64,000 nt of DNA, taken from assembly GCA_964016885.1 (NCBI GenBank), contig OZ024749.1:13516001-13580000 (forward strand). Reading direction: 5' to 3'. The stretch comes from Eledone cirrhosa. Taxonomy: Eukaryota. This document shows positions 27,978 through 49,093 of the stretch, in pieces. How positions within the stretch are numbered: the stretch's first letter is position 1; each line of letters opens with the position of its first letter. Under the pieces are notes generated by a model that was not told where the DNA came from, ran no database searches, and saw only the letters and a list, made by a program, of their open reading frames with translations. A program made the position numbers and the translations under genes.

Positions 27978-28121
<144 letters not shown>

Positions 28122-28286
28122 TGTACTTGTTTATTTCCGTATATGATGCTTTATTTTTATTTTTATTTTTATTTTTATTTTTATTTTTATTTTTATTTTT
28201 AATTTCATTCGCACCGTTTTCTTTCGCTATATGTCTCTCCACCACTCCCCTACACACCCTTTGAACTCTGTTCCCACACACTTCTC

Positions 28287-28318
28287 ACCCGAGGAAGGGC
28301 TTATGCCCGAAACGTCGT
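28287..28318 (+). ncRNA. Minimal Penelope-type hammerhead (U4C core, no stem III loop)
   Basis: ac CCGAGGA a GGGC ttat GCCC GAAAC GTC gt; AATAAA follows about 40 nt later; the 3' part of this family recurs reversed at 31168-31255. Confidence 0.6.
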
Positions 28319-28430
28319 TCCCCACCACCACCCCACTCTCCAGAGCGTGAAATTAATAAACATCCGTTGTACTGCCTCTCTGTTTTGTTCCTGTTCAAAT
28401 TTTTCCATTATATATATATATAATTAATAC

Positions 28431-29589
28431 AAAGCTAAACTCTGACTGGTAACCATCTCACTCAACAAACATTAGGTTATATTAAAATATAAACCCAATT
28501 TAAGTGTTTGGGGTGCTAACAATATGTATAATGTGGAAAAACCAGTTGTATTATTTTATGAGATATAATTAAAGTTAAAGTATATCTCTCTTTCCAAACA
28601 ATTGTTTCATTATAAGTTTTCTACAAGTTTGGGAGAATGTTTCCAGTTTATGTAGAAGCCTAATATATATTCATGTAAGAATAGATTTAGGTGGGCACTT
28701 ATAAATCGTCAGTGGAAGCCCATTAAACATTGATATAAGAAAACAATTTCTTACCGCTGTCAAAAATCATGTCCGTAAAGTTGGTCTCCCTCACCACGAA
28801 TGACCGCTAAATTTGAAATTCCAGCAGTTTTTGACTGAGGAAGTATCATAGCGACACGAAGCGGGAAGGGGAGACAACCCACGAAATGAGGAAAAAAATA
28901 ATAATATACACGCGGGTTAATTAGTTTTTTTGAAAACATTATCAATCCAACGTGTTTAAGAACTCAATTGAAAATAAAAAAATAAATATATGCTTGTATA
29001 AATTACACACGCATATAGATATTTTCTTAGGCTAAATCAGAAGTTGTACCCGAATAAGAACCGCTTCTCATAACCGCAGTAAATGCAGAAAGTTATGCTA
29101 TAAAGGGCAAATGGGAATATAATTCTCCGGCCGAATTATTAAGAGTAAAATATAAAACACACGCGGGTTAAATAGTTATTTCAAAACCAATATTAATTCC
29201 TCGTGTAAAGAACTCAATTAATAAAAGAAAATAAATACATATATGGATGTAATTATATACGTAGGCATATATATATATTTTCCTAGGCTAAAAAACAGAG
29301 AAGTTACAACCAAAAAAAAGCCACAATATTTCACAACAGTAATAAATACGGAAAGTCAAATTCATAAGGTACCTGGAAATAAACAGCTCTGGCCATTCAA
29401 GAGTAAATATTTAATACAATAACAGAGATAGTTTAAAGCTAAACTCTGACTGGTAACCATCTCACTCAACAAACATTAGGTTATATTAAAATATAAACCC
29501 AATTTAAGTGTTTGGGGTGCTAACAATATGTATAATGTGGAAAAACCAGTTGTATTATTTTATGAGATATAATTTAAGTTAAAGTATAT
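28431..29589 (-). mobile_element. ~1004-nt monomer plus 155-bp terminal direct redundancy, HHR-bearing, non-coding
   Basis: 28431-28585 matches 29435-29589; internal ~250-bp diverged duplication; flanked by TA. Confidence 0.85.
28592..28717 (-). ncRNA. Hammerhead ribozyme with ~100-nt stem II
   Basis: Minus strand: ttcca CTGACGA t ttataagt...acttataa t GAAAC aatt GTT tggaa. Confidence 0.8.
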
Positions 29590-29617
29590 ATATATATAAT
29601 CGTCTCTTTCTCCCTGT

Positions 29618-29648
<31 letters not shown>

Positions 29649-29706
29649 AGCAAGTGTTACACCAAGAAAAATAAAACGTCGGCGTGAAGAGATTATGAAT
29701 TTATTT

Positions 29707-29821
29707 GCTTTGACATATGTTTTTATGTCTATTATAATACAGTGTCTACATATGCTGACTACAATATATATTGGTCAATCATATGCAATACTTAATCATT
29801 TACTACACTTCATTAGAAAGC
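29707..29821 (-). ncRNA. Decayed hammerhead (G5A and G12A)
   Basis: Minus strand: gcttt CTAATGA agtgt...acata AAAAC atat GTC aaagc, then AATAAA. Confidence 0.55.
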
Positions 29822-30552
29822 CTATAGTATTTAACTATTCACTACGCAGTATAATTCAGTAATGAGATTTTCGTTTAAGAAAATGTAAATATGTTAAAAA
29901 TAGAATGTCAGTTATTGTGATAGTAGAGAGGAGAGGGTGTGGGGGGTAAAGAGTTTCACACTATCAATCCGTGTGCTGTGATGTGGAACAATTATTCTTT
30001 GACCATTGTTATAGGGGAAGGTTTTGATGTTTACCATATATGGGGTTAGAGAATGTATAAAGTGAGAGAAAGATAAGGTAGAGATTAAGAGTAGGATAGA
30101 GTGGGTAAGGGGGAAAGGAATTAAGAAAATGAGATTACTTTGAATATTACTGATTCCATTGTATGTGAAAAGTTGAAATGCCACAGGAAATGTACCAAAT
30201 AGGTAGAACCTAGGTATTAGGGATAGATTCTTGTTCTAGCCTGGTTTGTATTTAGCGAAGATTATAAGAATCTTGTGTTTGCAATTAAATAACCTATTGT
30301 GCCGGGAATTTAGAAGATCTTTTCGGTTGCTACTTCTATTACTCCCGCCAAAGATAGTTCACAGAGGCGTCTTTCATTCCGGACCATTGTAGTGTATATT
30401 CAATATTAGCATGTTTCAGATCCTAGATTTTTTTTCGCCTGGGCCGTAGATCTAACTAAACTGGGGTCTTTAAATACACATATATATATATATATATACA
30501 AATAGTAAAACAATGATATTAAACAAAAAACGGTTAATTCATAGTACAACAC

Positions 30553-32291: not shown

Positions 32292-35200
32292 AATGCAACG
32301 TTGTTATATTACATTTATAAAGAAATATACAAGTAACGTTTTCGATTCAGAAACAAAAATATAAGTGTTTGAACTGTGAATATGTTGTGAATAGGTTGTA
32401 GAACACCTATTTATATGAATGATACATAAACTTTAACATATAAATACCGCGTTGTTATATTATATTACATTCACAAAGGAATATACTAAGTAACGGTTCT
32501 TTTTGTTCTCGATTCAAACGATTCAAGAACAACGTTTAAAACACAGTTGTAGAATTAAAAACTAACTGAAAAGAAATATTACCCAAGCTGTGAATAACTT
32601 TAAATTTGATTCTGACAGAACTTTGTCGTAACTTTTAAAGAAGATCATCGACTATTTTGAAAAATAAATACGAAATATTAGTGAATAGACGAACTCATCA
32701 TGGCAAAAAGTACAAGTCTCCTTCGACCAAATCGCAACTACAACCGTTGTACACAGTGGAGCTACGAGCTTAACAAAGTATTATATGAAGCATACAAACA
32801 ATCTGAACCCCAAAAGTTCGGTTTTATGCAAAGGCTAAAAACTTTATGGAACTCCAAACACCCAGAATTAGACTTTTATCCAAAGCATTTAAATGAACAG
32901 GCAAAACGTATCATTAGATGTAAATTGATACATCTAACGGAATTGAGTGATACTACAAATACAGCCCTTGTAGACAACCACCCCACCTCCACTGACAGAC
33001 AAAGAGAATGGCCAGCTAAATCTAACAGTGAACAGCTCACCAACAATTTTGCTGAAATCTATCCCACTTCCACTGAAGAACAGCAAGAAAGGTCAGCTGA
33101 CTCTAGTAGTAATTGTCACCACATCAAAAACGAGGCTGAAATTCATGACTCTACTGTACAAACAGAGCACCAAAAACTTGTGGGCACCCTACAAGTGATA
33201 TGGAACGATATGTTTCAAGAGATACACAGCCTTAATGTGAGTGACAGACCATACAACACTAGAGTCAGTAAAGAACCCACTAAATTGGAATTGGAAGCGG
33301 TGAACGAAATAGCTGGCAATTATCTGAAGGCTATACGTGTAGAAACGACATTTGAAACGCTTAATGTTTTGTTATATGCTTCAGCTGTCACATTGCTATC
33401 ATATAACACACATCTAAAACCACGCAATCAAGATACAAACAGAAAGCCTGAACCAGCGTGGATGCGAAATTTAAAAACCAAAATTTTGTCCCTGAGACGA
33501 AGTATCTCACACATCGCAGTCGTTATGAAATGCAACATAGAGAGCAACTTCACACGACACCAGGAAGACCTAAAGAAAAAGTTAGAGAGACGGTTTGGAG
33601 ATACAAAATTTAAAACTTTGAACTCCAAATTACACCAGTTGAAACAACAACTCACAGCTACAACAGAAAGACTAAAATATAAGTCAACAGCACATAAACG
33701 ACAAGTGCTAAATAGATTGTTTGCCAGAGATCCTAAATCTGTTTATCGCAGCTTCGGTGGCAAAAGCTCAATCCCTGTAAACGACACCCCTTCAAATGAA
33801 CAGGTTGAGAGCTACTGGAGATCTGTATGGGAAACGGATGACGGATTCAACAGACAAGCTAATTGGCTAAAAGAACTGGAACAGGACTACTGCCAACATG
33901 TCCAGACAAAACAATATGACATAGATGGGTCAATACTGGAAACAGCTCTACAGAAAATGTCGAATAGGAAATCACCAGGCCCAGACCTCATTACAGGATA
34001 CTGGTTGAAGAATTTCACTTTCTAGCGGCAAGATCTCATACGGCTGTTTACAGAAACCATTAAGGGCACACAAGAACTGCCCAGATGGTTATCAACTGCC
34101 ACTACTCTCCTCATTCCCCAAAATAGCCAAACCACCCTTGCTAAAAATTACCGCCCAATTGCCTGCCAAAACATCATGTATAAATTATATACTGGGTGCC
34201 TTAACCTGTTCTTACAGGATCACTGTGCTACCAACAACATCATAACACCTGAGCAAGCTGGTGGAAAGAGGGAGGTGTGGGGTTGCATAGATCACCTACT
34301 AACTAACAAAATGATTCAGGAAAAAACAACAAAGAATCGCAGAAACATGACTGTCGTGTGGCTGGACTATCAAAAAGCATTTGATAGTGTACCTCATGGG
34401 TGGATTATTAAGGCTTTACAGTTAGCTAAAGTCCCACAACCATTGGTAGCTGCTGTTGAACGCCTGACCAAGAACTGGTACACCAATTTGATCCTTAGAG
34501 GTGAGAAGGAGCAGGTTAAGACTGATAAGATACATTACCAGAAGGGCATCTTTCAGGGTGATAGCTTGTCAGTGCTACTCTTCGTTCTCTCACTGAATCC
34601 ACTATCTTACCTACTCAGGAAACAAGGTGGACAAAGAAGTGGGCCCAGAAGTATCTCCCATCTTTTCTTTGTTGATGACCTGAAGTTGTATGGGCCAAAT
34701 ATCAATAACATCAAGAAACAATTGGACCTCATTCTAACGCCAACATTTGGCCTACTGAACTGGTCATTGCAAGAACTAAGTGAGATGGATGTTAGAACTC
34801 GAAAACTTCTCAGTGTTACTGGGAACTTTAACATCAATGGTGATGTGGATAGGCTATACTTCTCACGCAAGGAAGGTGGCTGGGGTCTAAAATCAATATT
34901 AACAACATATGAGACCCGGATAGTAACACTGAAGCAACACCTTCAACAGAGGAAAAAGGTTGGCAACCATCTTGCCCAGGTTTATGAGCATGAAAAAAGA
35001 AATATCATTAGAATAGCGACTGATCTGGAGGAGAGATATGGAATAAATCTCTCACCCAGAGAAATCGGAAGATCCTATTCAATGTTCAAACAAGATAAGA
35101 AAATTGACCAATTTACAGAAAAAGTTGTGCATGGATACTTGAGGCGTAAAACACAGACCATAGAGGGGATAAACCACTCAAAAAGCCTGGCATGGAGTTC

Positions 35201-35956
35201 CGACAAGTTTATGACATCACACCTTGAGGGATATCTCTATGCAATACAGGAACAAGAACTCCCTACCAAATATCTGCTGCACAAAAGAGGAGGGCCAGCA
35301 GCTGACAATAAATGTAAAACAAAGATCGAGGATGTAAGCCACATTGTTGCCAGCTGCGAAAGAATGTCATCTCGCTACTACCTCCCCATGAAACACGATG
35401 GGATAGCTAGAACCATCTGCAACGCACTTCGGAAAACAAAATTAACAACAAACGAGGAAGAATATATTGAGACAGATGGCACTAAGGAATACTGGTGGAA
35501 CCTGAAAATAAAAACTGCCACCAAATTAAAGCACAACCGGCCTGATATTGTAGTTTGGGACCACACATTGAAAACGTGTTCTGTTGTGGAGATCAGCTGC
35601 CCACTTGATGGAAACGTTGTCAGAAAAATACAGGAGAAGGAGGACATCTACGGACCATTGATGAGGAGTTTACAAATCCAGTATCCAAGATACACCTTTA
35701 GCTTCATACCCATCATTATTGGTGCTACGGGTTATATACCAACCCGCTTGGACCAAAGTATGACTGAACTTGGATTTGCGGACAAAAAGCGCAGCTCCCT
35801 AATTCATAGTCTGCAGATGGCTGCGATAGCTGGCACCTTCAAAATTTGCAAAACATTCTTGCGATTCAAGGGATGACAATTTCTTTTCTTTTACAACCTT
35901 GCCACCGGGAAGGTGGCCGGTCAAAAAAATATACTCGAAATTAAGAGAAAGAGAAA
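32290..35956 (+). mobile_element. R4/Dong-like RLE non-LTR retrotransposon inserted in (TACA)n
   Basis: Single long reading frame with RT and a C-terminal PD-(D/E)xK endonuclease; (TACA)n on both flanks. Confidence 0.88.
32700..35876 (+). pseudogene. RT + restriction-like endonuclease ORF, disrupted
   Basis: The two listed ORFs are in the same frame, split by TAG at 34023-34025. Motifs: KSPGPD, NYRPIAC, DYQKAFDSVPH, GIFQGDSLS, LFFVDDLKLY, RLYFSRKEGG, NRPDIVVWD...VEISCP. Probable internal deletions after KKQLDL and in the CCHC knuckle. Confidence 0.9.
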
Positions 35957-48815: not shown

Positions 48816-48898
48816 GGAAGACATGATATGAAGGTTAAAAAACACTTGTGGATAGTGCAGTTTTTAAATCAACATAGATATGTTGGAAAATGTCTTCC

Positions 48899-48970
48899 TA
48901 TTTTATCTGATGAAAACACAAATGTTATTGCATGATAATTATTTGTTTTTGAAATGCGCATAATAAAATA
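48899..48970 (+). ncRNA. Hammerhead ribozyme
   Basis: tattttat CTGATGA aaacacaaat...atttgttttt GAAAT gcgc ATA ataaaata. Confidence 0.85.
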
Positions 48971-49093
48971 CATGGAACTCTTTTAACCATCTTTTGATCT
49001 TATATATTATGTATAATCCAGTCCTACAAACTGTAAAGTGCTTCTTATACGATATCTGCATTGCTTTATTGTACTACAATAAAACTCACCTCC

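Follow-up and report, generated by a model that had tools for sequence, protein, structure and literature searches.

The window, meaning the whole 64,000-nucleotide stretch of Eledone cirrhosa DNA that was analysed, carries on its minus strand a non-coding insertion set in (TA)n, which consists of one 1004-nt unit and a 5'-truncated part of the next (Table 1). An earlier note on this DNA had described direct repeats of 155 bp; we find them 1004 bp apart from start to start (28431–28585 and 29435–29589), alike at 154 of 155 positions (99%) with a single mismatch at 28570/29574. The minus-strand hammerhead that the note had read at 28717–28592, with its cut between 28597 and 28596, has the right coordinates as read from the sequence, and position 29589 does correspond to 28585 when shifted by one period, which puts it 11 nt 3' of the base that follows the cut. 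Two of its limits have to be moved. The 3' end had been put at 28431, but 17 nt are missing from the window copy at 28430/28431, which moves the true 3' end to about 28424 and makes the redundancy 29411–29589; and 155 bp is not an intrinsic repeat length, which varies among copies. Because the upstream partial unit ends 11 nt before the second cut site, it has no second hammerhead. The unit has 31% GC and, as the note had stated, no ORF: read as a circle, its longest frame is 59 codons from an ATG and 67 from stop to stop. The 11-nt stretch at 28414–28424 is found again at 29590–29600; it is a possible target-site duplication, the limits of which are not definable inside TA.

Table 1. Features of the insertion and its target, in window positions.
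Feature	Position	Strand	Basis
Whole insertion, non-coding: 1004-nt unit and 5'-truncated part of the next (partial tandem, pseudo-LTR)	28424..29589	-	
Fixed 3' end of the family (putative start of reverse transcription); next to it, a 17-nt deletion private to this copy at 28430/28431	28424..28430	-	
Downstream repeat copy in the limits of the earlier note; conserved 3' region common to the superfamily	28431..28585	-	
Type I hammerhead, predicted cut 28597/28596	28592..28717	-	sequence, alignment, pair counts
Degenerate internal duplication of about 250 bp (28896–29041 against 29147–29297, 77–92% in blocks)	28896..29297		
Upstream partial unit, the true redundancy (179 nt)	29411..29589	-	
TATAT microhomology between element and (TA)n target at the 5' junction	29585..29589		
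(TA)n target, 3' side	28409..28423		
(TA)n target, 5' side	29590..29600		

The predicted hammerhead

The predicted ribozyme has the parts of a type I hammerhead. On the minus strand, helix I pairs 28717–28713 with 28596–28592, the CUGANGA core reads CUGACGA (28712–28706) and is matched by GAAA (28608–28605), and the NUH triplet is GUU (28599–28597; H17 = U). Helix II is 97 nt long and branched. Helix III is palindromic here and in most variants, as is expected for a dimeric ribozyme according to PMC4209133. The conserved G10.1–C11.1 pair is missing: the window copy and most of the family have U·U at this place (28705/28609), and G-C or A-U stands there in 8 of 16 aligned rows. A search with Rfam gave 0 matches at the gathering score in the window and no hammerhead at E ≤ 10 in 28000–30000. 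In an alignment of 16 sequences from several subfamilies, 93.6% of cells are paired, and two-sided change is seen in 9 of 30 pairs, spread over all five helices. None of 500 shuffles reached the observed covariation and slid controls paired at about 40%, although this control is generous, since the structure was drawn from those same, related sequences. The hammerhead region folds with a z of -2.71. Judged by the 9 compensatory pairs across subfamilies, the predicted hammerhead is real as a conserved structure, though an atypical one.

A sister family, about 70% alike and with the same scaffold and 3' end, has a hammerhead with the canonical G-C and GUA, and the superfamily as a whole offers natural core variants on one scaffold (G-C/GUA, G-C/GUC, U·U/GUU and U·U/GUC), which allow cleavage to be compared with template use. 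The same U·U core with a short helix II was matched 6999 times (control 0). Loci of this short-helix-II family (L150–L179) have the same U·U and helix III core and an optional tail of about 65 nt, and frequently form head-to-head palindromic pairs.

Copies, ends and element class

The window element is one of about 1000 copies of a non-coding 1-kb retroelement: a 29-mer derived from the repeat has 1062 exact matches in its own 3-Gb genome (control 0). A 20-nt motif from the conserved 3' region has 7056 (control 0). Our end statistics come from 82 insertions, obtained from the first 100 listed 29-mer matches, all on contig C1, after merging tandem matches and removing three duplicated loci; they were picked regardless of length, but each needs the exact 29-mer and all are on a single contig. 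Of a first search set, chosen for copies of 1159 nt or more, the statistics take in only the two that are in the unbiased list as well, L028 and L029. Monomer positions are window positions minus 28430, and the first base after the cut is 166.

The 3' end is fixed at monomer 979–982, within 4 nt, in 81 of the 82 insertions, and one copy (L031) reaches 68 nt further. In the RNA of hammerhead sense this fixed end is the 3' terminus, and it lies 192 nt behind the cut. The 5' ends are variable, with copy lengths from 87 nt to 2.6 units in this sample: 58 of the 82 copies fall short of one unit, 24 are longer and 15 pass a second cut site. Some copies hold 2–3 units, the longest 2.6–2.9, and tandem units of the family carry a hammerhead each (L010, L077 and others); the window copy has only one. 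With duplicated loci still included, 80 of 85 loci have (TA)n at their 3' junction and 67 of 85 have it within 40 nt of the 5' junction. Nine of the 82 insertions have a C- or G-containing repeat on both flanks; those of L070, L080, L089, L099 and L119 (9–17 nt) look like real target-site duplications, clear ones of 9–15 nt lying in imperfect targets such as L080, L089, L099 and L119, and the others may be chance. One insertion, L071, bears an inverted 5'-truncated copy of itself. A weak second cluster of 5' ends at monomer 445–471 (window 28875–28901; 7 vs 2.3 expected) lies near an indel of the reference copy and may be a transcription start or an indel artefact. Literature searches outside subscription papers and supplements listed no paper recognisable as a prior report of the family.

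On most of the features tested, the window element is a non-autonomous Penelope-like element, a class that overlaps the non-LTR retrozymes. It combines a fixed 3' end, variable 5' truncation and partial-tandem pseudo-LTRs with a type I hammerhead, palindromic in helix III, near the 3' end, and its inverted 5' partners are the truncated copy in L071 (1 of 82) and the tRNAs described below. The 30–40-nt tail, an optional feature of the class, was not seen, one 3' end being common to 81 of 82 copies. Non-autonomous Penelope-like elements such as MRC1 and the pLTR or partial-tandem insertions of Neptune and Naiad, as described in PMC8557442, likewise have a fixed 3' end, heavy 5' truncation, partial-tandem pseudo-LTRs, an inverted 5' partner, a microsatellite target and a hammerhead near the 3' end; the window family differs from them in that no sequence-similar autonomous partner was found among the loci examined and that it has no such tail class. 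Inverted copies and repeats resembling target-site duplications are given as Penelope features in PMC8557442 and PMC3846280. The Poseidon element PAc (PMC11167929), for which internal initiation and AT-rich nicking were shown in vitro, resembles the family in its AT-rich target and in a start of reverse transcription, putative for the window family, at a fixed distance 3' of the hammerhead. With the metazoan non-LTR retrozymes of PMC7229834 and 10.64898/2026.07.22.740005, the family shares a non-coding, low-GC unit, a type I hammerhead, head-to-tail copies and the proposed mobilisation by Penelope-like elements. The earlier note had called the unit much larger than metazoan retrozymes, which is overstated: it is at the top of a reported range of 51–972 bp (10.64898/2026.07.22.740005) or 150 to >1000 nt (PMC7229834). 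Unlike these retrozymes, the family is mostly dispersed in copies of less than one unit and not in arrays, with 15 of 82 copies passing the second cut; it has a fixed internal 3' end, (TA)n targeting, a long branched helix II and a U·U/GUU core. In 10.64898/2026.07.22.740005, non-autonomous Penelope-like elements and non-LTR retrozymes are argued to be the same thing. The element class is already described, and the added value lies in the edge of 5' ends at the cut.

The genome contains an autonomous element with an RT-sized ORF, a CX4CXXC linker, which marks Neptune or Nematis (PMC8557442), and a GIY-YIG domain; it carries a U·U/U17 hammerhead about 385 nt behind the stop codon and ends in TA. 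A Pfam GIY-YIG scan scored 150 of 10597 candidates, and 30 + 20 loci were viewed. None of 20 long-ORF GIY-YIG loci, some of them from families without a delimited 3' end, resembles the 3' region of the window element above background: best local scores against its 3' 330 nt were 24–32, and the one locus that scored 80 did so through a separate sister-family insertion. No autonomous element was found upstream of 30 superfamily copies. Since no autonomous partner was located, we infer the driver: a Neptune-type Penelope reverse transcriptase-endonuclease likely mobilises the element in trans, as the shared ribozyme type and TA targeting suggest. In one locus (L241) a hammerhead tandem was considered as the pLTR of a Neptune-type ORF and proved to be a separate insertion; this non-coding tandem of 459-bp period lies in TA about 1.4–2.4 kb behind the ORF stop and has two U·U/GUA hammerheads.

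5' ends at the predicted cut and the template

The 5' ends of the copies, plotted against the cut, are not random. In the 27 nt 3' of the cut (monomer 140–166) lie 14 of 82 ends, where a constant hazard would give 3.25 (Poisson 8e-6; p 0.001 after scan simulation), and in the 27 nt on the opposite side (167–193) there are 2. The end positions were assigned manually from the junction sequences, and within TA they have an uncertainty of a few nt. Genome-wide, TA junctions on the forward strand number 139 at 150–179 and 29 at 189–218, reverse-strand counts having been left out as inflated by repeated matches; normalised by anchor passes in the sample, the ratio is 4.4, an approximate value because the anchors match sister subfamilies too. 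Among the matches listed, 38 distinct sites fall at 149–155 (22), 156–165 (11), 166 (3) and 168 (2), with 0 at 169–179, so that 36 of 38 are at the cut or 3' of it. The commonest class, 149–155, coincides with the TATAT microhomology; without it, 14 of the 16 sites listed are still at the cut or 3' of it (p 0.0007). In the sister family this holds for 24 of 28 listed sites, 5 of them at the cut (p 0.0003). The edge is therefore real and located at the predicted scissile bond in both families. The exact 11-nt offset of the window copy would fit trimming to the TATAT that matches its (TA)n target.

This edge is likely a genomic footprint of ribozyme cutting in living cells, and we regard it as useful evidence that cleaved RNA may serve as template. 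Its value comes from the fact that hammerhead function in endonuclease-bearing Penelope elements is called unclear in PMC8557442 and that no RNA ends at the cut site are reported for PAc in PMC11167929; in the window family, in contrast, about one copy in six ends behind the cut. In two related families the 5' ends now break off sharply at the bond predicted to be cut; related end-mapping may exist in the supplements of these papers. Mapping of 5' ends would be a cheap genomic assay of in vivo ribozyme activity that can be applied to any Penelope family. From a 5' end just past the cut site, the earlier note had inferred a ribozyme-processed template RNA. This holds for the minority class of 14 copies, and the edge is repeated in the sister family, but it finds no support as a general rule: the ends of 68 among the 82 copies lie elsewhere, and in 63 the first cut site is read through.

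Based on these findings, we consider it probable that the window copy belongs to a non-coding retroelement moved in trans by a Neptune-type Penelope, the template being a tandem RNA cut at its upstream hammerhead only. A source locus of more than 1.3 units would be transcribed, and two hammerheads in the transcript would pair via the palindromic helix III and cut inefficiently. The Penelope protein would then nick (TA)n and begin reverse transcription at an internal site some 192 nt 3' of the last hammerhead; synthesis would either stop early at random or run off the 5' end made by the ribozyme, and the cDNA end would be trimmed to the nearest TA-like microhomology, by 11 nt in the window copy. 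This copy runs across one intact cut site and breaks off shortly before the next, as it would if the upstream hammerhead of the transcript had been cut and the downstream one not. With one complete hammerhead it would release no unit-length RNA by itself, and it would be a dead end for self-processing. Against this account stand the non-canonical core, the 63 of 82 copies that read through it and results on other elements. For PAc, hammerhead cleavage proved unnecessary in vitro, and RNA-seq gave no read that ends at the cut site (PMC11167929); 8 of 9 tested dimers were inactive in vitro in 10.64898/2026.07.22.740005.

The earlier note had spoken of a tandem or circular RNA. A partly cut linear tandem fits the window copy directly and explains it more simply than a circle, which has no end at the cut unless it is cut again. 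A ligated 1004-nt circle, like the circRNAs known for other metazoan retrozymes (PMC7229834), could nevertheless be copied by rolling-circle reverse transcription, with the cut-bounded ends coming from re-cleaved circles. Read-through copies would then cross the ligation junction, and the cut-site junctions that are read through carry no indel in 72 of 72 cases (68 exact, 4 with substitutions); such junctions speak against sloppy template jumps and fit uncut and re-ligated RNA alike. Units in one insertion differ by 1.37%, against a median of 2.44% between loci (44 loci), and share subfamily alleles 301 times against 212 differences, none of which recurs more than 2 times, which is equally compatible with a homogeneous tandem source. 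Copies of up to 2.6–2.9 units would also suit a circle, as would the 5 ends just past one full unit (0.96 expected in the 82 insertions), but genome-wide this excess is only about 1.9-fold (11 vs 5.8, p 0.035) and falls in an AT-rich stretch. Given that the window copy and 6 other long copies of the length-selected set end at the cut in their second unit, we judge a circular template unlikely.

Cutting might also be dispensed with altogether, if reverse transcriptase stalled at the foot of a folded hammerhead where the TATAT microhomology happens to lie. The fold of the region (z -2.71), the non-canonical U·U and GUU core and the 22 of 38 listed junctions in 149–155 agree with such stalling, and among 13 other TA runs of at least 5 nt in the unit, the one at 561 has 3 ends against 0.62 expected. 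The other 12 runs have 0–1 ends, though, and the edge persists when the TATAT class is set aside. Moreover, some copies run through the 3' strand of helix I as far as the cut before they end (163, 163, 166 three times, 168 twice), and the sister family has the same edge with a different sequence there (5 of 28 at the cut). Stalling without cutting is, for these reasons, the more doubtful of the two alternatives to the partly cut tandem that concern the template. The window copy by itself, a non-coding core between two near-identical direct repeats, could be read as a small LTR element (a TRIM or plant-type LTR retrozyme) with 155-bp LTRs, and fixed ends with target-site duplications had been named as what would speak against the earlier interpretation. 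What we found instead is one fixed end, repeats whose length differs in every copy, 58 of 82 copies below one unit and some of 2–3 units. The fixed 3' end, variable 5' ends, TA targets and inverted copy mark the repeats as a partial tandem and not as LTRs, and the hammerhead is of type I and outside the repeat, whereas an LTR retrozyme or TRIM would have two fixed LTRs, a type III hammerhead in the LTR and a 4-bp target-site duplication. The variable 5' ends refute this candidate, to which we give almost no credence.

Captured pre-tRNAs and other elements

In 5 of 109 distinct insertions (L029, L082, L111 and L116 on C1, L022 on C5), the 5' end is fused head-to-head with a tRNA copy, on whose far side (TA)n follows. 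Four of the fused tRNAs contain an intron and are read as Lys(UUU); the fifth is a tRNA-Ala(CGC). ARAGORN, run in bacterial mode, called the fused tRNA 'Stop' and missed that of L116. Since the intron and portions of the leader and of the 3' trailer are still present in the tRNA-Lys copies, these derive from precursors that had not been processed. Their source genes are on the same contig (C1, 206.1 Mb and 298.3 Mb). The tRNA pattern has 56 exact matches genome-wide, mostly in gene clusters, 12 cluster members having been left out of inspection; 3 of the 56 are fused to the element family, all on C1, and one of these lies 1.4 Mb away from its source. Genes resembling tRNA-Lys(UUU), whose variable introns measure about 16–24 nt, are clustered (L260–L299) at 206.1 Mb of C1, 99.0–99.1 Mb of C2 and 7.18 Mb of C19.

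Such fusions could arise if synthesis were primed a second time, on the opposite target strand, and a nascent RNA close by were used; they suggest that a second RNA, unrelated to the first, can be the source of the inverted 5' partner in Penelope insertions. PMC3846280 describes host genes with introns that were mobilised in trans between pLTRs; literature searches outside subscription papers and supplements listed no paper recognisable as a prior report of pre-tRNA capture. We tentatively advance a joint proposal, which seems to us nearly but not quite an even call: that the 5' ends of the superfamily would be an in vivo, nucleotide-level record of Penelope hammerhead cutting and of cut RNA used directly as template, and that the same machinery, priming a second cDNA on the opposite target strand from nascent RNAs close by, would capture unspliced pre-tRNA-Lys head-to-head, preferentially on the chromosome of the source tRNA genes.

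Several other elements were seen in the window and genome. At 28280–28408 (+) another Penelope-like 3' end with a short hammerhead-like core lies tail-to-tail with the window element in the same TA run; at U4 the core reads C here, and L064 and L315 have T. A type I hammerhead-like motif of another family, with a GCGC palindrome in helix III, is present at 48895–48975 (+) and in several loci, often as inverted pairs. The non-LTR retrotransposon ORF at 32685–35876 (+), broken by a stop into 446 + 616 aa, has an RT domain (RVT_1, E 3e-20) and an RLE-like C-terminus and is unrelated to the element. Finally, a TA-targeted Penelope-like end with 36,244 matches (L180–L209) shows a CAGAAGA core variant, a long helix III, an optional tail of about 90 nt and no attached ORF within the 230 nt viewed upstream; its 3'-terminal motif is similar to that of the window element.
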